From a phage, in sequence record PZ386957.1: DNA of 64,000 nt. One strand, given 5' to 3'. How positions within the stretch are numbered: the first letter of the stretch is position 1; every line of letters starts with the position of its first letter. Positions 34,932 to 44,379 of the stretch are shown piece by piece. Position numbers and translations under genes: made by a program. The notes beneath the pieces were generated by a model that was given only the letters and a program-made list of their open reading frames with translations, was not told the origin of the DNA and searched no databases.

Positions 34932-36983
34932 TTACATTTTAAATTTATCTGGCATTGCGTCTACAGATACCAGATCAGCAATAAGCTGGCGTAGAGTTGC
35001 TTTGTCTGCTTTCTTGCGTTCTGTCTTAGCTTCGGTAATAAAGCTGGAGAAAGACAGGTCAGAAGCAGGTTTAACAACACCTTCACGGATGAATGCATCA
35101 CCGTCCGCGATCATCTCGCCAGATTCTTGTAATGCTGCCAGTTCATTTTTGGTCATAATATGTGCCTCAATGTAATAAGTTTCTTGTGAATCCGTCGATG
35201 CCGTAGCACGAGTTACCGTATCAAAGGATAACACAACACCGCGAGGAAGTAAAATCTCGCATTCTTTGTAAGCAAATGCTTTGTTACCTACTGGCAATAC
35301 AGGGATGTTTTCCGCGCCAGCAATGGAGAAAGCAACATTAGCGCCACCTTCACCGCGAGATCCAGCCATAGAATCAACACCAGCAACGGCACTAGCCACG
35401 TTTGCATTCCAGCCACCAAAGATATTAGGTGCAAGGGATGTGCTCACATAGTTTTTAAAGTAAAACGCTTTTTGCTTACGTGCAGTTTCCCACATTTGCG
35501 ACCGGAAGTCCATACCACGATACAGAATAGTACCCGGATCAAGTTTAACTCCATAGTTAGCGAAGGCATTATCCAGTGCATCACACATCTTGACCAATTC
35601 TTCTGGATCTGCTACACCTTCAAACTCTTCCAGTTTTCGATCTGTCAGGAAGTTGTTCATGTTAATGTATGCTGCATCGGCGTATTCGCTTAATACAAAA
35701 CCTTCCGCACCTGGTAGGTCAAGATCAATATCTGCCATCATTTCACCCATGTTGCTAGCAATTGCTTCAAACATACCGGAAGCAACATTACGCAGGGCAT
35801 CGGTTTTAATCTGGGTGATATGACTACGCAGCATTTCAGCTTTTATGTCTGCTGGCATAGCCGGATCTACTCGGTCCATTGCAAGGGCAGTGATCTTGTT
35901 TTCGAATACTTCCTCGCTCATGATTTCTTTTAAGCGTTTAATTGATGCCGCGATAACTTCCGCAGACAACGGATCATATTGGTCCTGAACTTTTACCAGT
36001 TCACTTACTGCGTATTTTGCATCGGCTTCGCTTTCAAAGATAGTACGCATAAAGCCATAGCGAGTGATAATATCACTTGTCCAGTCATTCAAAGAACGGG
36101 CGGTTGAACGTTCTAAGGCTTGACGATCGATCAGAGTATTAAACTGTTTCTTCGGTTCCGCTTCGGTAATGTCTTCTTCCGGTTTAAGATTAATTTTTTC
36201 TGGATGATTGACATAATCACCGTTATATGTCGCTTGAGTTTTCAGCATTTCTTCTTTAGTCAAACGAGATTTAGCCGCTACGCGTTGTTCCGCTTCCGCG
36301 TTTCGTTCTTCTTCTGCTGCAAGGCTAGCCGCATATGCTTCATCTTTAGTAAGAGATTCGCCAGTAGCTTTAGATACCCAGCGATCACCTAAATCACTTT
36401 CTACTTTAGTGAACAAGGACTCATCCAGTTTAATCCCTTTAATCTTATCAATCGCCATCCCTCGACGCTTGACAACAACTAAAGCGATCTTTTTGCTGGT
36501 CATTACTTCCTGCTGGAATACTTCAAACTTCGGAGTACGACGCACTAAACGCTCTATAACTCGTTTAACCAGTTCGGTCTTGCCTTTCATACGGGAAACA
36601 TTAAAACGGAACATAACAGCGTCTAATTGAGCTTTACGGGCGGTTTCCATCACCACATCAAAAGCACTTGCCATAACAGCAATCGGGTTATCGCCTAGAC
36701 CATTTTTAAGCTGTACAATTCGACCGCTTTTATTCATCTCACACAGGACCACATGCGCGGTTTTATCACCCACGCGAATAATTTTAGGTGTTTTGTTGGT
36801 GAAGTTGCAAAGACGAACAATCACATCTTTATCGCGTGTCTGTACTGCAAAAAGCTGTTTTGGGTTCTGCTTCGGCTTTAGGCACTGTACAGGGGCAATG
36901 CTACCAAAGTTTTCTTCCTCTTCTGTTAACAGCCATTTCTCAAAAGATTCAATCATTAGATCGTCGATTTCTAAGTTAAACAT
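34932..36983 (-). CDS. alt: Alt-like ADP-ribosyltransferase
   Basis: 683 aa (T4 Alt is of similar size); C-terminal ART motifs ILYRGMD, YVSTSL, KECEILLPRG; synteny downstream of DNA ligase. Confidence 0.85.
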   Translation of the reverse strand: MFNLEIDDLMIESFEKWLLTEEEENFGSIAPVQCLKPKQNPKQLFAVQTRDKDVIVRLCNFTNKTPKIIRVGDKTAHVVLCEMNKSGRIVQLKNGLGDNPIAVMASAFDVVMETARKAQLDAVMFRFNVSRMKGKTELVKRVIERLVRRTPKFEVFQQEVMTSKKIALVVVKRRGMAIDKIKGIKLDESLFTKVESDLGDRWVSKATGESLTKDEAYAASLAAEEERNAEAEQRVAAKSRLTKEEMLKTQATYNGDYVNHPEKINLKPEEDITEAEPKKQFNTLIDRQALERSTARSLNDWTSDIITRYGFMRTIFESEADAKYAVSELVKVQDQYDPLSAEVIAASIKRLKEIMSEEVFENKITALAMDRVDPAMPADIKAEMLRSHITQIKTDALRNVASGMFEAIASNMGEMMADIDLDLPGAEGFVLSEYADAAYINMNNFLTDRKLEEFEGVADPEELVKMCDALDNAFANYGVKLDPGTILYRGMDFRSQMWETARKQKAFYFKNYVSTSLAPNIFGGWNANVASAVAGVDSMAGSRGEGGANVAFSIAGAENIPVLPVGNKAFAYKECEILLPRGVVLSFDTVTRATASTDSQETYYIEAHIMTKNELAALQESGEMIADGDAFIREGVVKPASDLSFSSFITEAKTERKKADKATLRQLIADLVSVDAMPDKFKM

Positions 36984-37045: not shown

Positions 37046-37225
37046 TTAAAACATCTTAGAAATTAATTCTGCTTTGATTTCGCAGAGAACATCTAAAGAT
37101 TTCTCGTCACCTGCTTTTGCTGCTTCTGCTTGCATTTTTGAAATGGCTTCGAGGTCGGTGCAATTATAAGCCGCCTGAACTTTAGCGATTGCGATGATTG
37201 CAGATTCGATTGTTAAGTGTTTCAT
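37046..37225 (-). CDS. Small early protein (59 aa)
   Basis: ATG with AGGAGA RBS 34 nt downstream of a perfect TTGACA-17-TATAAT promoter; MKHLTIESAIIAIAKVQAAYN... Confidence 0.65.
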   Translation of the reverse strand: MKHLTIESAIIAIAKVQAAYNCTDLEAISKMQAEAAKAGDEKSLDVLCEIKAELISKMF

Positions 37226-37257
37226 GTTTGATTCTCCTTTCGTTTCGGTATGTGTGC

Positions 37258-37286
37258 ATTATAGGGGATCGGTGATCCCCTGTCAA
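37258..37286 (-). promoter_or_regulatory. Early promoter cassette TTGACA-17-TATAAT with palindromic spacer GGGGATCACCGATCCCC
   Basis: Perfect -35 and -10 hexamers; spacer is a palindrome containing two GATC sites. Confidence 0.8.
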
Positions 37287-37293
37287 CAACTTT

Positions 37294-37812
37294 TTAGTTA
37301 TTTTTTAATTGCTCATCTTGCAATAATGCAATCACATGCTGGCGATGTTCTTCCGATTGAGGCACACCGAAAAAGTTTGTTTTGTAGAAATATTCTAATC
37401 GATCTTCTCGTGTGCTCTCTTCCATCATGATAGCTGGTAGACCAAGATTGCGAAAACGTCGCTTTTCTGCTGGCGTAAAATCGCTGTAATACAACATAGA
37501 ATCATCATTACCAGCAATGCTAAACTCATCCTTCATGAAAGAGAATATTGCGTTTAAACGCTGTTTACCGTCCACGATTTCGATCTCATAGCGAGAGCCA
37601 TCATCAATCTTAGCCATTGCGATAGCGCCTACCGGAAAATCATTAATAAGGTTTTCGACAAACATGCGTTTGTTTTCTGTATTCCATACCAACTCACGCT
37701 GATAATCTGGGTTCATGTTGATATAGCCATCTTCTAACCATGCCTCATAGACAGAGATGACAAAGTTTTTAGTATTGGTATAGTAACGGCGTTTAGGCGT
37801 TAAACGGTTCAT
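37294..37812 (-). CDS. DUF262/ParB-like nuclease-domain protein
   Basis: 172 aa from ATG at 37812 (AGGAG RBS); motifs DYQRELVW and VDGKQRL typical of the ParB/DUF262 (GmrSD N-terminal) fold. Confidence 0.7.
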   Translation of the reverse strand: MNRLTPKRRYYTNTKNFVISVYEAWLEDGYINMNPDYQRELVWNTENKRMFVENLINDFPVGAIAMAKIDDGSRYEIEIVDGKQRLNAIFSFMKDEFSIAGNDDSMLYYSDFTPAEKRRFRNLGLPAIMMEESTREDRLEYFYKTNFFGVPQSEEHRQHVIALLQDEQLKNN

Positions 37813-37813
37813 A

Positions 37814-38146
37814 TTATAGTCTCCTGAATGGATCATCACGTAGGTCAATATCTTTTAAGAACTCATCCCATGAATGCCGGATATTGTTCTTAGTTCTCCA
37901 GATAAGAGCAGGAATCGAACGCTCTCCCATCTGGAAGTAAGGATCATATGATCCATATGCCCAATATGCTACTACAATTCCACAATCAGCGCAATAGTAT
38001 TCTATTTCACTTGCTGGCGACCAAAGACCATCAATATGATCGGTGATCTTGCTTTCGATGTTATGGCTATGACAATCAGGGCAACGGATGCAATGACCTT
38101 GTTTATCGTAATTTGACGTTAGCGAATACTTGAATAATCTCATCAT
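37814..38146 (-). CDS. Zinc-ribbon protein
   Basis: 110 aa; CIRCPDCHSH...YYCADCG (two CxxC pairs); start overlaps upstream stop. Confidence 0.65.
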   Translation of the reverse strand: MMRLFKYSLTSNYDKQGHCIRCPDCHSHNIESKITDHIDGLWSPASEIEYYCADCGIVVAYWAYGSYDPYFQMGERSIPALIWRTKNNIRHSWDEFLKDIDLRDDPFRRL

Positions 38147-38859
38147 AGATCCTTATTGGCTTCAAATACTGCCTTTGCAAATCCGCGCGGGGTAAGTGAC
38201 CGGATAGTCTTTGTTCTGGTTCCTTTCCCGCCTAGCTTAGAATGCTGTTTACTGTACCCTTTCTCAATTGGTATCGGTTTCTTTTCTGGCATTATAAAGC
38301 CTTGTCCAGTCCATAGGCAAGTCTTTTTAGGATACATGTCACGGGCGGCGATATAATCAGGGAAGGTCGGATGTATATCATCTTCCGGTAAATATCCGCC
38401 ATATTCCCACGGGTGGAACATATAATCGGGTTTACGCCACATGCTAGAGATAACGCTTACAGGATTCTCTATCATGTAGGGAACGCCCAACCATTCGCCC
38501 AAATAAGCCGATATTTTCGCTGTTTGTACATCTCTGTGTTGAATGAGTGGACCTAGAGTTTTTCTCTTACGTTCAAAGTGTGCAGCACCACTAACCGCTA
38601 AATTTGAACAGCTAGGAAATGCAAAAATCATATCCGGTTTGCCCCATTCAAGATCCATTGCTCTTTCTAGCCAATCCAAATCAATCCAGGTGTTTACATA
38701 GGTAATGTTTGGATGCTCAAATCGGGTATTATACTTTTTGTATGTACCGTGGTCGCCATCGTCAGCATTAAAGCAGATCACCTTATGACCTGCTTTAGCC
38801 CATTCTAGCCCCATTATCCCCGATCCGTCAAAGTTGCAGAATATTAATTTTTGTTTCAC
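38143..38859 (-). CDS. Compact C5-cytosine DNA methyltransferase-like protein
   Basis: 238 aa, GTG start overlapping upstream stop (GTGA); motif I-like FDGSGIMG, PCQ-like FPSCSNLAVSG with Cys, ENV-like MIENPV, C-terminal RSLTPRGFAKAVF resembling RxLTPRExxRLQGF. Confidence 0.65.
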   Translation of the reverse strand: MKQKLIFCNFDGSGIMGLEWAKAGHKVICFNADDGDHGTYKKYNTRFEHPNITYVNTWIDLDWLERAMDLEWGKPDMIFAFPSCSNLAVSGAAHFERKRKTLGPLIQHRDVQTAKISAYLGEWLGVPYMIENPVSVISSMWRKPDYMFHPWEYGGYLPEDDIHPTFPDYIAARDMYPKKTCLWTGQGFIMPEKKPIPIEKGYSKQHSKLGGKGTRTKTIRSLTPRGFAKAVFEANKDL

Positions 38860-39107
38860 GCTGCCCCCATTGGTTTGATAGTAACAGAATCTAAAAGACC
38901 TTTGTTAGCCAGTTCGCGGCAAGTTTTCAGATCCGCAACTTCCCAGCCAGCCGCAATCAGATTATCGATGAGGCTGTTAGCAACGTATTCGCTCATGAAA
39001 GAGCACTGTTTGCCGATGGTGTAGCGTACACGCTGTAATTTAAGTTTACGGAAGCCTTTAACGTTCAGGTCTTTAGCGATTTTCTTTGCGGTTTCGATGT
39101 TAGCCAT
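38856..39107 (-). CDS. Hypothetical protein (83 aa), first gene of the MTase operon
   Basis: ATG with GGAGAATC RBS downstream of promoter at 39148-39176. Confidence 0.65.
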   Translation of the reverse strand: MANIETAKKIAKDLNVKGFRKLKLQRVRYTIGKQCSFMSEYVANSLIDNLIAAGWEVADLKTCRELANKGLLDSVTIKPMGAA

Positions 39108-39147
39108 TGTTTGATTCTCCTAAGTGGTATCTCGTCTTGATGTGTGT

Positions 39148-39176
39148 ATTATAGGGGATCTCCCGATCCCCGTCAA
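39148..39176 (-). promoter_or_regulatory. Early promoter cassette TTGACG-17-TATAAT with palindromic spacer GGGGATCGGGAGATCCCC
   Basis: Hexamers and GATC-containing palindrome seen in sequence. Confidence 0.75.
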
Positions 39177-39190
39177 CAACTTTTTTAAAA

Positions 39191-39472
39191 TTATTCGTGA
39201 TTAGTTTCGATGTTATACATTTTGCACCAGTTCAGCCAATCACCCAGATCCTGATAGTTGATGCTTTTATCTGCTGCCATCGTTTTTGTCTTGATACCCA
39301 TATGTGCGTTATGAGTAACCATTTTTACAGTGAACTCAATTTTATCGCCTTTGGCCTTAACATCAACCAGTTTGGTCCACTGGCTACCAGCGCCGCGAAT
39401 GTTCATACCAACGATGTTTCCGATGTATGCTTCTTTGTTTTTCAGGATTTCGGTTGCTTTGATGAATTTCAT
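39191..39472 (-). CDS. Hypothetical protein (93 aa)
   Basis: ORF with RBS and own promoter. Confidence 0.65.
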   Translation of the reverse strand: MKFIKATEILKNKEAYIGNIVGMNIRGAGSQWTKLVDVKAKGDKIEFTVKMVTHNAHMGIKTKTMAADKSINYQDLGDWLNWCKMYNIETNHE

Positions 39473-39505
39473 TTTTGATTCTCCAGTTCGTTTCGGTATG
39501 GGTGT

Positions 39506-39534
39506 ATTATGCTATGTTCTTACTTTGGTGTCAA
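39506..39534 (-). promoter_or_regulatory. Early promoter cassette (TTGACA-17-CATAAT)
   Basis: Shares the extended conserved context AAAAAGTTGTTGACA ... CATCGAAAC with the other cassettes. Confidence 0.65.
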
Positions 39535-39542
39535 CAACTTTT

Positions 39543-39812
39543 TTAGATATTTTCAGAAATAAATTTTAAAACTTGACGTAAATGTTTCTCATCTTTGATA
39601 GTCGCCGGAAGTTCTTCTTTTACTTCCTGTGCAAGATAGATATTGCCGTTCCAAGTGAAAGATCCGTCTTCGTTTACGCGGTAGCTGAACATCCACTCGC
39701 AATCATTTTCGACTTCATAAACACACAGAAGGGTGTAATCATTAAAGTTATTGATTTCAAGGTCGAGGCCGTGACGTTTTGCAAAGTTGGTAGTGGTTTT
39801 AGTCAATGCCAT
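39543..39812 (-). CDS. Hypothetical protein (89 aa)
   Basis: ORF with GGAGAATC RBS and own promoter. Confidence 0.65.
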   Translation of the reverse strand: MALTKTTTNFAKRHGLDLEINNFNDYTLLCVYEVENDCEWMFSYRVNEDGSFTWNGNIYLAQEVKEELPATIKDEKHLRQVLKFISENI

Positions 39813-39852
39813 TGTTTGATTCTCCTAAGTAGTATCTCGTTTCGATGGGTGT

Positions 39853-39881
39853 ATTATGATATAGGCGTGATCTGGTGTCAA
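39853..39881 (-). promoter_or_regulatory. Early promoter cassette (TTGACA-17-CATAAT)
   Basis: Consensus context as above. Confidence 0.65.
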
Positions 39882-39910
39882 CAACTTTTTTAAAATTTAG
39901 GCAATAAAAA

Positions 39911-39928
39911 GCCGACACTAAGGTCGGC
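39911..39928 (-). terminator. Terminator GCCGACC-TTAG-TGTCGGC + T-run (repeated at 40413)
   Basis: Hairpin followed by TTTTTATTGC on minus strand; the ~35-bp terminator block recurs identically at 40413-40430. Confidence 0.7.
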
Positions 39929-40321: not shown

Positions 40322-40354
40322 CTTTATTTCCCTCAATCTCGTTTCGATGGGTGT

Positions 40355-40383
40355 ATTATGCTATACACAGGATCTAGTGTCAA
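40355..40383 (-). promoter_or_regulatory. Early promoter cassette (TTGACA-17-CATAAT)
   Basis: Consensus context. Confidence 0.65.
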
Positions 40384-40412
40384 CAACTTTTTAAAATTTT
40401 ATGCAATAAAAA

Positions 40413-40430
40413 GCCGACACTAAGGTCGGC
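40413..40430 (-). terminator. Terminator (second copy of the 39911 hairpin block)
   Basis: Identical hairpin and flanks. Confidence 0.7.
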
Positions 40431-40438
40431 TAATAAAA

Positions 40439-40747
40439 TCATTTAGACAAATAATCATTCTGTGCAATCCGGTCAGCATGTTCCGGCGTTACGTCAATCG
40501 CAATCACTTTAACGCGTGCTTTCTTGCGACCTGGGTTTTCTCGTAACCAGTGCTCATGACCGTGAACATTTTTATACTGCGATGCTTCTTCGAAGGTACG
40601 GATCGGACCTGGGTAATCAGCGTAAAGGATCTCTAGATCTTCGGTGATGTAAAAATATACATCGTAATTGCTGTTCTCTAGCTTAAGCAGAGACTTTCGG
40701 AACATTGGGAGATTTTCGCGGGTAAATTCAAAGATATTATCTTTCAT
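40439..40747 (-). CDS. HxHW-motif family protein, paralog 1
   Basis: 102 aa; YFYITEDLEI...HGHEHW...VIAIDV. Confidence 0.7.
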   Translation of the reverse strand: MKDNIFEFTRENLPMFRKSLLKLENSNYDVYFYITEDLEILYADYPGPIRTFEEASQYKNVHGHEHWLRENPGRKKARVKVIAIDVTPEHADRIAQNDYLSK

Positions 40748-41085: not shown

Positions 41086-41131
41086 AATTTGATTCTCCTA
41101 GTTAGAAAGTGTATCTCGTTTCGATGGGTGT

Positions 41132-41160
41132 ATTATGCTATACACCCGATCTTATGTCAA
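41132..41160 (-). promoter_or_regulatory. Early promoter cassette (TTGACA-17-CATAAT)
   Basis: Consensus context. Confidence 0.65.
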
Positions 41161-41166
41161 CACTTT

Positions 41167-41445
41167 TTATAAAATAATTTTTTGATATTTTTCTATGATG
41201 TTTGTGTAGGTCACGTCAACCGCTAGCACCGTTGCTTCGAATCCACCGTTTAACCAATGGCTATGATCATGGTCGTGAAAGAAACCTAGACCAGTACGAA
41301 GACCTTCTTTATATTCTGCGCGTACATTCAGTTTGTCGTCGATAAACAGATAAAACCATGAATTTTTACTAGGATTGATGATACAACCTTTCAGATTAGG
41401 GAGAATATCACGACTAAGAATAAACTTATCACCTACTTTGAACAT
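41167..41445 (-). CDS. HxHW-motif family protein, paralog 2
   Basis: 92 aa from ATG at 41445 (GTGAGGA RBS); FYLFIDDKL...HDHDHSHW...VLAVDV. Confidence 0.7.
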   Translation of the reverse strand: MFKVGDKFILSRDILPNLKGCIINPSKNSWFYLFIDDKLNVRAEYKEGLRTGLGFFHDHDHSHWLNGGFEATVLAVDVTYTNIIEKYQKIIL

Positions 41446-41449
41446 AATA

Positions 41450-41770
41450 TTAGTCCTCACTTATAAGGTCAAACCAATTGTTTTTCGCATAATGCTTAAT
41501 GCGTGCTTGATCTGCTTCCGATGGTGATAGATTCCATGCAACCACTACAACTTCTGACGCATCGTCATCCGTTTCTGATACCCAATGATTGTGATTCATA
41601 CAGTTATTTGCTATCGAGTGAGCAAATGATTTCATCACTGGAGACGTATAATCATAGTAACGGATTTTCAGATTTTCATCAACGTACAAATAGATCGTAT
41701 AAGGTTTATATTCAGTAACCAGTAACAGACAGTTACGCAATTCTGGGAAAATATTTTTAGTTAATTTCAT
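41450..41770 (-). CDS. HxHW-motif family protein, paralog 3
   Basis: 106 aa; IYLYVDENL...MNHNHW...VVVAWN. Confidence 0.65.
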   Translation of the reverse strand: MKLTKNIFPELRNCLLLVTEYKPYTIYLYVDENLKIRYYDYTSPVMKSFAHSIANNCMNHNHWVSETDDDASEVVVVAWNLSPSEADQARIKHYAKNNWFDLISED

Positions 41771-41972
41771 ATTCTAGTTCTCCGTAATACACGGTAATCC
41801 ATTTTTCTTCATACTTTGTATCTTTCCAACACACAATCCCGTTTACTGTGCAATCTTTGGAATTGACGAATGATTCATATTGTTCTGCATCTTCCATCAT
41901 TGCATGAGCGGTCTTTTCATCGAATATATCGCAGATCGCTTTATATGCTCGATAATCTTTAAATTTGCTCAT
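41757..41972 (-). CDS. Small protein, tandem paralog a (MSKFKDY...)
   Basis: 71 aa from ATG at 41972; about 50% identical to the adjacent 41975-42184 product. Confidence 0.6.
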   Translation of the reverse strand: MSKFKDYRAYKAICDIFDEKTAHAMMEDAEQYESFVNSKDCTVNGIVCWKDTKYEEKWITVYYGELEYEIN

Positions 41973-41974
41973 AA

Positions 41975-42184
41975 TTAAGACCACTCAAGAGTTTTTGAAA
42001 ACACATCTATCCATTGTTGAGTATATGCGGTTTCTTTCCATGATACAATACCAGTCGAATAATGGTTTTTGTTTCCAGAAAAGGACGGGCATTTTGAGGC
42101 ATCTTCCATCATCTTTTCGGCGAACTCTGGTTCGTATACTCGCAAGATCTGTTGATATGCTTTATAATCTTTAAATTTGCTCAT
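41975..42184 (-). CDS. Small protein, tandem paralog b (MSKFKDY...)
   Basis: 69 aa; shares MSKFKDYxAY...MMEDA...GIVxWKxTxY with the neighbour. Confidence 0.6.
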   Translation of the reverse strand: MSKFKDYKAYQQILRVYEPEFAEKMMEDASKCPSFSGNKNHYSTGIVSWKETAYTQQWIDVFSKTLEWS

Positions 42185-42449
42185 AATTGTTAACTACCTT
42201 ATCAGCTTCTTTTATTGTTTTTACATCAACTGCGATAATCCGTAAAGGTTCGTCGAAGGTCCACCAATGATCGTGAATATCGGCTTGTGATTTATCACCA
42301 AAGGAATCACGAATATCATTTTTACATTTATAGCCAATGTGACCTTCATAGTCAACATAAAGGTAATTATCGAAAATCGGCGTTTTTAAGATCATACCGA
42401 AAAATCTTTCTTTGTGTGTCTTATCCAGTGTTGCAGTAATTCTCATCAT
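42171..42449 (-). CDS. HxHW-motif family protein, paralog 4
   Basis: 92 aa; YLYVDYEG...IHDHWW...IIAVDV; AGAGGAA RBS. Confidence 0.7.
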   Translation of the reverse strand: MMRITATLDKTHKERFFGMILKTPIFDNYLYVDYEGHIGYKCKNDIRDSFGDKSQADIHDHWWTFDEPLRIIAVDVKTIKEADKVVNNYEQI

Positions 42450-42873: not shown

Positions 42874-42907
42874 TTTTGATTCTCCTATATCTCGTTGGTA
42901 TGTGTGC

Positions 42908-42936
42908 ATTATAGGGGATCACCGATCCCCTGTCAA
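42908..42936 (-). promoter_or_regulatory. Early promoter cassette TTGACA-17-TATAAT with palindromic spacer GGGGATCGGTGATCCCC
   Basis: Perfect hexamers and GATC palindrome. Confidence 0.8.
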
Positions 42937-42943
42937 CAACTTT

Positions 42944-43252
42944 TTATTCTTCATCTTCAACTTTATCTTTATATGCGTATTTCATAAATTTGTCTGCTAC
43001 TTTGTCGGCCTTTTCTGGTTTGACGTCTGACGCCAGGACAATGGCTAGATCGGTTTCGTCGTTCCCACCATACCAGTGATTATGTGTGTCGTTTTCATCA
43101 ATATAGAATTTATCACCTTCGTAAGTTCGAGCAAATACATCTAAATTCCCATCGATGTAAAAGATCCAATCTTCGTAAAGAATAACCGTATTAGCAAGGT
43201 TCTTGTTGCCTTCAACGAAAGGTTCGGTTACAAACAAATTGGTACGTTCCAT
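42944..43252 (-). CDS. HxHW-motif family protein, paralog 5
   Basis: 102 aa; IFYIDGNL...THNHW...AIVLASDV; GAGGA RBS. Confidence 0.7.
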   Translation of the reverse strand: MERTNLFVTEPFVEGNKNLANTVILYEDWIFYIDGNLDVFARTYEGDKFYIDENDTHNHWYGGNDETDLAIVLASDVKPEKADKVADKFMKYAYKDKVEDEE

Positions 43253-43826: not shown

Positions 43827-43860
43827 AATTGATTCTCCTAGTTCGTTTCGGTATGTGTGT

Positions 43861-43890
43861 AGTATAGGGGATCGGTGATCCCCTGTCAAC
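43861..43890 (-). promoter_or_regulatory. Early promoter cassette (TTGACA-18-TATACT) with palindromic spacer GGGGATCACCGATCCCC
   Basis: Consensus -35, imperfect -10, GATC palindrome. Confidence 0.6.
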
Positions 43891-43902
43891 AACTTTTTTG
43901 AA

Positions 43903-44379
43903 TTATTTTTCTTGATGCTCGCGCTCATACTTTTCGAAATAAAATTCTACTGGCTGGTCGTGGATTGACAGTAAGCCAAAGCGTTTAGCCGCGCGTAATC
44001 CCATGTTACGTTGAATGTACTTCTGGAAGTTCTCGCGTATACACTTACGCCAGTATTCTAAGCCCATACAGCTTTTATAAAGATTGCATTGCACACACGA
44101 CGGATTCATGTTATCAAGTATATCATGTTCCGGTTTATGCATTCCTACAACCTTATACTTCCACGATCCATCATCATTACGGGAAATTCGTCCATTTTCA
44201 TCATAGACTACTTTTGAGCGTCGCAATACTGGTTTGATGTGGTCTGCGTGCCAGCGATCCCCTAGTTCCTCGCCACAATAGGCACAACGTCCACCGTATT
44301 TCATTTTCAGGATCTGGCGTTGCTCTTTCTTTGACAATTTTTTAGGTTTAGGGGCTTTCGCCCCTTCATTATCACACAT
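43903..44379 (-). CDS. HNH endonuclease
   Basis: 158 aa; CAYCGEELGDRWHADHIKP (CxxC...HxDH) and later Cys pair; start overlaps DNA ligase stop. Confidence 0.75.
   Translation of the reverse strand: MCDNEGAKAPKPKKLSKKEQRQILKMKYGGRCAYCGEELGDRWHADHIKPVLRRSKVVYDENGRISRNDDGSWKYKVVGMHKPEHDILDNMNPSCVQCNLYKSCMGLEYWRKCIRENFQKYIQRNMGLRAAKRFGLLSIHDQPVEFYFEKYEREHQEK

Follow-up and report, generated by a model that had tools for sequence, protein, structure and literature searches.

A compact Dcm-like methyltransferase gene and its neighbors: a probable early transcription unit in a Krischvirus hyperplastic region

Positions 37,294 to 39,176 of a 64,000-nucleotide stretch of phage DNA (sequence record PZ386957.1; the whole stretch is called the window here) carry a gene cluster in which a putative cytosine-C5 methyltransferase, hereafter the methylase, is accompanied by an ORFan, a zinc-ribbon protein, and a DUF262 protein. 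Do these four genes act together as a modification or exclusion system, or are they independent genes that are transcribed together? We favor the second answer and put its probability at roughly 70%: the cluster would be one Krischvirus early transcription unit, composed of an orphan Dcm-like methylase and three independent accessory genes, with a shared promoter, in a hyperplastic region and bounded by promoter-early stem-loop (PeSL) cassettes. According to the open reading frame (ORF) list and a promoter scan, the four genes are tightly packed, all on the minus strand, behind a single near-consensus sigma-70 promoter. In order of transcription, they encode an 83-residue ORFan (39107..38856), the 238-residue compact Dcm-like methylase, which begins with GTG (38859..38143), a four-cysteine zinc-ribbon protein of 109 or 110 residues (38146 or 38143..37814), and a stand-alone “mini” DUF262 protein of 172 residues (37812..37294). 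For the DUF262 gene, the ATG of MNRLTPK is the best start, and a 184-residue ORF from a TTG is less likely. The promoter, TTGACG-N17-TATAAT, lies at 39176..39148 (−35 element at 39176-39171, 17-nt spacer, −10 element at 39153-39148) and agrees with the consensus at 11 of 12 positions. The initial annotation had described one consensus promoter driving four translationally coupled genes. A single early promoter shared by all four genes is supported, and coupling is plausible because the stops and starts overlap or abut, with GTGA between the 83-residue gene and the methylase gene, ATGA (or TGATG) between the methylase and zinc-ribbon genes, and TAAtATG, which carries a GGAG Shine-Dalgarno sequence, between the zinc-ribbon and DUF262 genes.

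The distribution of the four genes among phages carries the argument for independence. Matches to the methylase were found in 1519 phage records, mostly without the other genes, and matches to the zinc-ribbon and DUF262 proteins in 329 records each; the 83-residue ORFan was matched in 57 records, all from Krischvirus. Among the matches listed, all four genes occur together only in these 57 Krischvirus records, and outside the genus their distributions are disjoint. When six non-Krischvirus loci were searched by tblastn with the four proteins, only the gene that had brought each locus in was recovered, and the same type of search in the nearly complete KarlJaspers genome detected the methylase and neither the zinc-ribbon nor the DUF262 protein. 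Methylase–zinc-ribbon adjacency was looked for in the 88-kb record P-GXEC-L2P5, at first taken for a Felixounavirus, and was not found: the record belongs to Dhillonvirus, its methylase is fragmented, and a zinc ribbon is missing. Given genes that are scattered outside Krischvirus and a cluster that sits between two PeSL cassettes, the methyltransferase/zinc-ribbon/DUF262 module or exclusion system first proposed for this locus was abandoned. A dedicated multi-gene system is not supported, and the cluster is best explained as co-transcribed, functionally independent accessory genes.

The cluster is already known as a conserved early gene cluster of Krischvirus, a genus of RB49-like, T4-type coliphages. 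The 2-kb region is 92.6–93.7% identical in DNA to 57 Krischvirus genomes, including RB49, phi1, JSE, and TB34, and its genes are orthologous to RB49p190, RB49p189 (annotated as “DNA methyltransferase”), RB49p188, and RB49p187, just upstream of alt in the direction of transcription. The methylase, zinc-ribbon, and DUF262 genes are under clear purifying selection, with ratios of nonsynonymous to synonymous substitution rates (dN/dS) of 0.02-0.12 (0.04–0.12 for the methylase and 0.02-0.06 for the zinc ribbon). For the 83-residue gene, dN/dS was 0.11-0.21 against RB49, phiS, and TB34 and 0.58 against UPWr_E1, values that are uninformative because only 3-7 substitutions are available per comparison.

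Both ends of the cluster are marked by PeSL cassettes. The upstream cassette (39129..39201, minus strand) combines the sigma-70-type early promoter described above with a GGGGATC..GATCCCC stem-loop located inside the promoter spacer (−14.9 kcal/mol, z = −2.9). The downstream cassette (37239..37311, minus strand, repeat family D1) places a second promoter, which matches the consensus at 12 of 12 positions (37286..37258), directly after the DUF262 stop codon, where it drives the next gene, a 59-residue ORF (37225..37046). Transcription of the four genes is probably attenuated or terminated at the stem-loop of this cassette, GGGGATCACCGATCCCC (−14.1 kcal/mol, z = −3.2). Each of the two promoters belongs to one of the 5 copies of a 73-nt repeat present within 20 kb, and the upstream promoter, being part of a repeated cassette family, is therefore not a chance match. 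The repeat families D1 and D2 cover the cassettes of the window, which display a consensus promoter, a stable stem-loop, and repetition in a hyperplastic region. In RB49 and phi1, a PeSL joins a strong early promoter to a stem-loop terminator; such cassettes accumulate beside ORFans in hyperplastic regions, where they mediate modular gene shuffling (Arbiol et al. 2010; PMC2839356). They were assayed there as promoters and terminators, and terminator function was shown for another PeSL (PMC2839356). The junction between the 83-residue gene and the methylase gene (38856-38862) is a hot spot for indels in the genus: RB49 and many relatives, TB34 among them, have ORF189.1 (246 bp) at this position, phiS has another ORF of 537 bp, and in the window, which lacks ORF189.1, the two genes overlap directly at GTGA. 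Such a strain-variable junction is consistent with PeSL-mediated gene shuffling.

We then consider the methylase itself. The initial annotation had recognized C5-methyltransferase motifs I, IV (with the catalytic cysteine), and VI and an RxLTPR segment, with little room for a target-recognition domain (TRD), and all of these were recovered. Motif I (FDGSG, residues 10–14) contains G12, S13, and G14, which are invariant in 36 homologs; Cys84 in motif IV (FPSCSN) is invariant in the family, as is E131-N132-P133 of motif VI. The C-terminal segment IRSLTPRGFA includes the invariant core IRSL.R (I219-R220-S221-L222 and R225), and the KK pair formed by Lys178 and Lys179 is intact. The residue that precedes Cys84 is a serine in the window protein, compared to a proline in the family consensus FPPCTD. 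In M.EcoRII, replacement of the proline before the catalytic cysteine by serine or alanine lowered activity but did not abolish it. Only about 60 residues separate motif VIII from the C-terminal segment. Unlike a variable TRD, this stretch shows high conservation throughout the family, which argues for one shared specificity.

Direct searches with the 238-residue protein were negative: PF00145 gave no match even at E = 1, hence none at the gathering threshold, and Pfam, NCBIfam, and PDB sequence searches returned nothing. The assignment consequently relied on structure prediction and family-level scanning. Although the window protein failed the PF00145 check that had been proposed for it, 23 of 36 family members match this profile weakly (best E = 1.3e-6). 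The structure that AlphaFold predicts from the family alignment (predicted local distance difference test [pLDDT] score of 89.6) has an S-adenosylmethionine (AdoMet)-dependent methyltransferase fold that is clearly of the C5 type as predicted, with DNMT3A/3B as the closest solved fold. A family profile searched against PDB gave only a marginal match to motif I of M.HaeIII (E = 0.8). In addition, the protein matches phrog_757 (“DNA methyltransferase,” E = 1e-88), has 5283 homologs of about 230 residues, and is 58% identical to bas01_0030 of AugustePiccard and 55% identical over its full length to bas06_0055 of KarlJaspers, annotated in BASEL as a “Dcm-like C5 cytosine methyltransferase.” Together with the predicted fold, the data support a compact Dcm-like cytosine-C5 methyltransferase of an already known family.

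One member of this family has been characterized. The 711-bp dcm gene of phage K42 triggers retron Ec86, and its product raises 5-methylcytosine (5mC) on the multicopy single-stranded DNA (msDNA) of this retron, as determined by liquid chromatography-mass spectrometry (bioRxiv 10.1101/2023.08.16.553469). According to the same work, K42 Dcm resembles DNMT3A, is active when expressed alone in E. coli, and is inactivated in a C82A/E128A/K175A/K176A mutant; CCTGG, a motif of the msDNA, was inferred as its target without genome-wide mapping. The K42 genome is 95% identical to that of KarlJaspers, and the methylases of the two phages are nearly identical. Family members of 234–237 residues carry exactly C82/E128/K175/K176, and these residues of K42 align exactly to C84/E131/K178/K179 of the window protein. 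As a separate observation, RB49 was propagated on E. coli B (PMC4041780), although the 55%-identical K42 methylase triggers Ec86, a retron that is native to the B-strain derivative BL21(DE3) (bioRxiv 10.1101/2023.08.16.553469).

From these likenesses we infer activity of the window allele, a target sequence, and an anti-restriction role. The enzyme would transfer a methyl group from AdoMet in a reaction in which Cys84 attacks the C6 atom of the flipped-out cytosine while Glu131 makes contact with N3, and it would recognize DNA through the short family-conserved segment that replaces a large TRD, as in DNMT3-type enzymes. Made early, it would methylate a specific short site, probably CCWGG-like by analogy with the K42 homolog, in phage DNA as it replicates and, incidentally, in the DNA of the host. 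Methylated progeny would escape restriction enzymes that cut this site, which is the most likely role of the gene. The DUF262 protein would act as an independent ParB-like nucleoside triphosphate (NTP)-binding protein without a nuclease, and the zinc-ribbon and 83-residue proteins as independent small accessory proteins.

Several observations weigh against an active methylase among independent genes. The presence of all four genes in 57 of 57 Krischvirus records is compatible with functional linkage, without requiring it. All Krischvirus methylases have asparagine instead of the family's near-invariant Asp86, and with the Ser-Cys dipeptide of the window and phiS, this means that activity may be reduced or altered. 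TB34, which has the same operon, yielded no detectable modified nucleoside by high-performance liquid chromatography/mass spectrometry, and its DNA was left uncut by BrxU (PMC13390438), while RB49 DNA prepared from E. coli B was cut by HpaII and NheI (PMC4041780). This cutting excludes global methylation but not methylation of CCWGG-type sites. Sparse site-specific 5mC could have escaped both the TB34 and the RB49 assays, and in TB34 it would look like host Dcm methylation if the propagation host were dcm+. CCWGG is also strongly depleted in the 64-kb window (25 observed versus 73 expected; observed/expected ratio [O/E] of 0.34), which would be unexpected if methylation fully protected that site. 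Depletion likewise affects GGCC (O/E of 0.33), CCAAG/CTTGG (0.32), GAGCC (0.33), and AGCT (0.62), whereas GATC is at expectation, and the deamination products CTWGG are not enriched in the window. With GGCC, CCAAG, and GAGCC depleted too and no CTWGG excess, the attempt to derive the methylase specificity from k-mer statistics was rejected: broad depletion without a deamination signature resembles generic restriction avoidance and gives no indication of which site is the target. Such a pattern would fit a phage that avoids restriction sites and whose cytosine is largely unmodified.

The same observations could be read to mean that the Krischvirus methylase is weakened or has been put to another use, that methylation is effectively absent from virion DNA, and that the gene is kept for a reason other than self-protection; such a protein might serve to bind DNA, or its methylation might be confined to host DNA or to a special substrate. 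We regard this as rather unlikely. It would account for the Ser-Cys dipeptide in the window and phiS, the genus-wide asparagine, a window protein below PF00145 detection, the lack of detected modified nucleosides in TB34, a CCWGG depletion as in unprotected phages, and the routine growth of RB49 on E. coli B, natively with Ec86, which the active homolog triggers. Nevertheless, the dN/dS of the methylase indicates that the protein is still constrained, its catalytic cysteine, ENP glutamate, AdoMet motif, and KK pair are intact, and the TB34 and RB49 assays are blind to sparse site-specific 5mC. The FPSCSN motif of the window and phiS, in place of FPPCTN, is itself part of a roughly 40-residue alternative allele. 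Two alleles of this central block (approximately 38515-38635, residues ~76-115) are found, FPSCSN...KRKTLGPLIQHRDVQTAKI in the window and phiS and FPPCTN...KK(R/L)EQGPLIQVHDVRAAKI in RB49, TB34, and UPWr_E1. Mismatches of the methylase gene to RB49 cluster in this block, and most of those to phiS fall upstream of it, within the first ~180 nt. The methylase gene has a synonymous divergence (0.4–0.8) several-fold above that of the neighboring genes (0.02–0.32), which suggests mosaic recombination.

The DUF262 protein had been described as a nuclease-fold partner with DYQRELVW and DGKQRL motifs. Its family membership is firm, with a PF03235 match above the gathering score (E = 5e-19) and all three motifs present (YQRELVW, DGKQR, and FYKTN, corresponding to QRxxxW, DGxQR, and FxxxN), each of them invariant in 47 stand-alone relatives. 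The nuclease part of the description had to be dropped: in GmrSD enzymes, DUF262 forms the half that binds NTP and acts as the sensor, and the DUF1524/HNH nuclease half is absent here. The 172-residue protein ends after the DUF262 domain, and profile searches gave no DUF1524/HNH match in any of the four proteins. Its family profile matches BrxU (2e-9) and SspE, and its predicted structure (pLDDT of 95.9) matches ParB-N, BrxU, PadC, SspE, KorB, and sulfiredoxin. Because of these profile and fold matches, we regard the protein as a complete minimal ParB-like NTP-binding domain without a nuclease. Word-index homolog searches returned only 9 matches for DUF262 and 1 for the zinc ribbon; the DUF262 relatives required an exhaustive search of representatives, by which stand-alone relatives of 160–190 residues proved common. 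Among the matches listed, examples come from Pseudotevenvirus, Slopekvirus, and prophage ST64B, where the neighboring genes are unrelated and no methylase lies nearby. The N-terminal extensions of longer relatives (260–290 residues) contain no Pfam domain.

An alternative that we hold to be doubtful, with an outside chance of being correct, is that the stand-alone DUF262 protein is a counter-defense or competition factor that is independent of the methylase. It might be a decoy or dominant-negative protein that binds host ParB-DUF262 sensors (GmrSD/BrxU, SspE, Menshen NsnA, or PD-T4-2), or, by binding DNA in an NTP-dependent manner, it might shield the DNA of the phage or keep other phages out. 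NsnA is its closest defense-protein profile, followed by PD-T4-2_A, and the N-terminal domain of BrxU is matched by both profile and fold. Early expression, purifying selection, retention of all three motifs, and the recurrence of 160–190-residue stand-alone versions in T4-like phages and prophage ST64B would fit such a role. On the other hand, the gene context offers no pointer to any target, GmrSD-type enzymes are no obvious threat because Krischvirus DNA is largely unmodified, and literature searches found no described anti-defense role for such proteins.

The two remaining proteins offer few clues to function. As had been noted, the zinc-ribbon protein has a double CxxC arrangement, and the CxxC...CxxCG pattern is conserved across its homologs together with (Y/F)WAYGSYxP. 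It matches Zn_Ribbon_TF weakly (E = 5e-4) and phrog_2993 strongly (E = 1.9e-33). Among the matches listed, homologs are found in Nonagvirus and Felixounavirus with other neighbors and no methylase nearby, and in FelixO1 the gene adjoins frd/td. A split GmrSD, in which the zinc ribbon would supply the HNH partner on account of a “DHI” sequence and CxxC pairs, was considered and rejected. The homolog alignment contains no conserved HNH-type histidine or asparagine, these residues not being conserved in the Nonagvirus and Felixounavirus proteins, and an HNH or DUF1524 profile match is likewise missing. The 83-residue protein matches phrog_14908 (E = 6e-58), and its 57 tblastn records, all from Krischvirus, are 95-99% identical. 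PADLOC returned a weak match to RT_UG35 for this protein (E = 1.8e-4, 64 residues aligned), which was treated as chance.

It is quite improbable, in our view, that the methylase, zinc-ribbon, and DUF262 proteins cooperate, with a partner supplying DNA recognition or with the trio forming a modification-dependent exclusion system against competing phages. Tight packing with overlapping stops and starts, retention of all four genes throughout Krischvirus, and strong purifying selection on the zinc-ribbon and DUF262 genes are what cooperation would predict, and DUF262 domains do sense modified DNA in GmrSD, BrxU, and SspE. However, K42 Dcm is active in E. coli without partners, KarlJaspers lacks both of them, each gene stands without the others in the six non-Krischvirus loci, the cluster contains no nuclease or other effector, and strain-specific genes are inserted between its members. 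We likewise give very little weight to the idea that the Krischvirus combination is non-accidental, with the mini-DUF262 protein, and perhaps the zinc ribbon, neutralizing host ParB-DUF262 sensors or blunting the methylase's own danger signal. If true, a blunted methylase signal might help explain the growth of RB49-type phages on Ec86-carrying E. coli B.

Finally, the Krischvirus SAP was reported to have T6-like DNA with hydroxymethylcytosine (hmC), glucosyl-hmC, and gentiobiosyl-hmC that is sensitive to BrxU (PMC13390438). SAP is 99.96% identical to the unmodified TB34, the genus is without known hydroxymethylase/glucosyltransferase pathway genes, and the modification profile of SAP is that of seven co-isolated Tequatrovirus phages, a discrepancy between SAP and TB34 that its authors left open (PMC13390438). 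Since the profiles are identical, a mixed stock is probably the simplest explanation. That the TRD-poor methylase performs the first step of a cytosine hypermodification, in which 5mC is then oxidized and glycosylated, would explain fully modified DNA in a genus lacking those genes, and a C5-methyltransferase whose target recognition is minimal might, in principle, have a broad range of action, but we rejected this reading as extremely improbable given the unmodified DNA of TB34, the likelier mixed stock, the cutting of RB49 DNA by 5mC-sensitive enzymes, and profile searches that detected no TET/JBP oxygenase or glycosyltransferase in the cluster.

The surroundings of the cluster were also inspected. 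Directly downstream of it, a 683-residue ORF (34932-36983, minus strand) is the orthologue of RB49 Alt, an RNA polymerase ADP-ribosyltransferase that is packaged in the capsid, and its position beside the cluster confirms the conserved genomic location. In total, PeSL cassettes of the window are located at 37239-37311, 39129-39201, 39487-39559, 39834-39928, 40336-40430, 41113-41207, 42889-42961, and 43842-43914, and they separate units of one to four small minus-strand ORFs. Three adjacent small minus-strand ORFs among them (102, 97, and 106 residues; 40439-40747, 41167-41460, and 41450-41770) look paralogous, with “Y.Y.DE.L.I.Y.DY...H.HW” and “V.A.DV/L” among the patterns that they have in common. 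A 90-nt direct repeat (41887-41976 and 42099-42188, 73% identity) extends over the 5′ ends of two further ORFs. The similar small ORFs and this repeat suggest local gene duplication in the hyperplastic region.

The value of these results lies mostly in correcting and refining annotation. Genes of the RB49p189 type, now labeled “DNA methyltransferase,” can be placed in the compact Dcm-like family, an assignment that gives Krischvirus testable anti-restriction and defense-trigger (retron Ec86) functions. Annotators should not take the neighboring DUF262 gene for a restriction nuclease or for a sign of a modification-dependent system. The stand-alone DUF262 proteins of phages, like the zinc-ribbon family with the WAYGSYxP motif, would make modestly interesting targets.

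How does the cluster compare with known systems? Its cassettes are ordinary PeSLs of T4-type phages (Arbiol et al. 2010; Comeau et al. 2014), from which no differences were found. RB49 (NC_005066), phi1, JSE, and TB34 have the same four genes in the same order and on the same strand, downstream of alt on the map, and the proteins encoded by RB49-type orthologs are about 91–99% identical to those of the window; RB49 differs by ORF189.1 between the first two genes and by FPPCTN rather than FPSCSN in motif IV. The GmrSD-family proteins (BrxU, Eco94GmrSD, and SspE) and Menshen NsnA share with the DUF262 protein a homologous N-terminal ParB-DUF262 domain containing all three motifs. Unlike them, the DUF262 protein has no DUF1524/HNH domain, ParBDB domain, ATPase, or effector partner genes, is phage encoded, and has one-third to one-quarter of their length. 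The Dcm of K42/KarlJaspers (Drexlerviridae; 236 versus 238 residues, 55% identity) has the catalytic and binding residues in common with the window enzyme, whereas its motif IV reads PPCTD instead of PSCSN and its genomic context differs; 5mC formation and retron triggering are known for the K42 enzyme, to which the window enzyme is likened by sequence. Bacterial C5-methyltransferases are about 90–240 residues longer than the 238-residue protein, which almost lacks a TRD, and their Pro-Cys dipeptide is not kept here. Nonetheless, classical enzymes of this type (M.HhaI, M.HaeIII, E. coli Dcm/M.EcoRII, and DNMT3A/3B; PF00145) and the window methylase have a Rossmann-type AdoMet-methyltransferase fold in common, as predicted for the latter, along with motif I (FxGxG), the motif IV cysteine, motif VI (ENx), and the C-terminal R-x-L-T-x-R-E/G segment.

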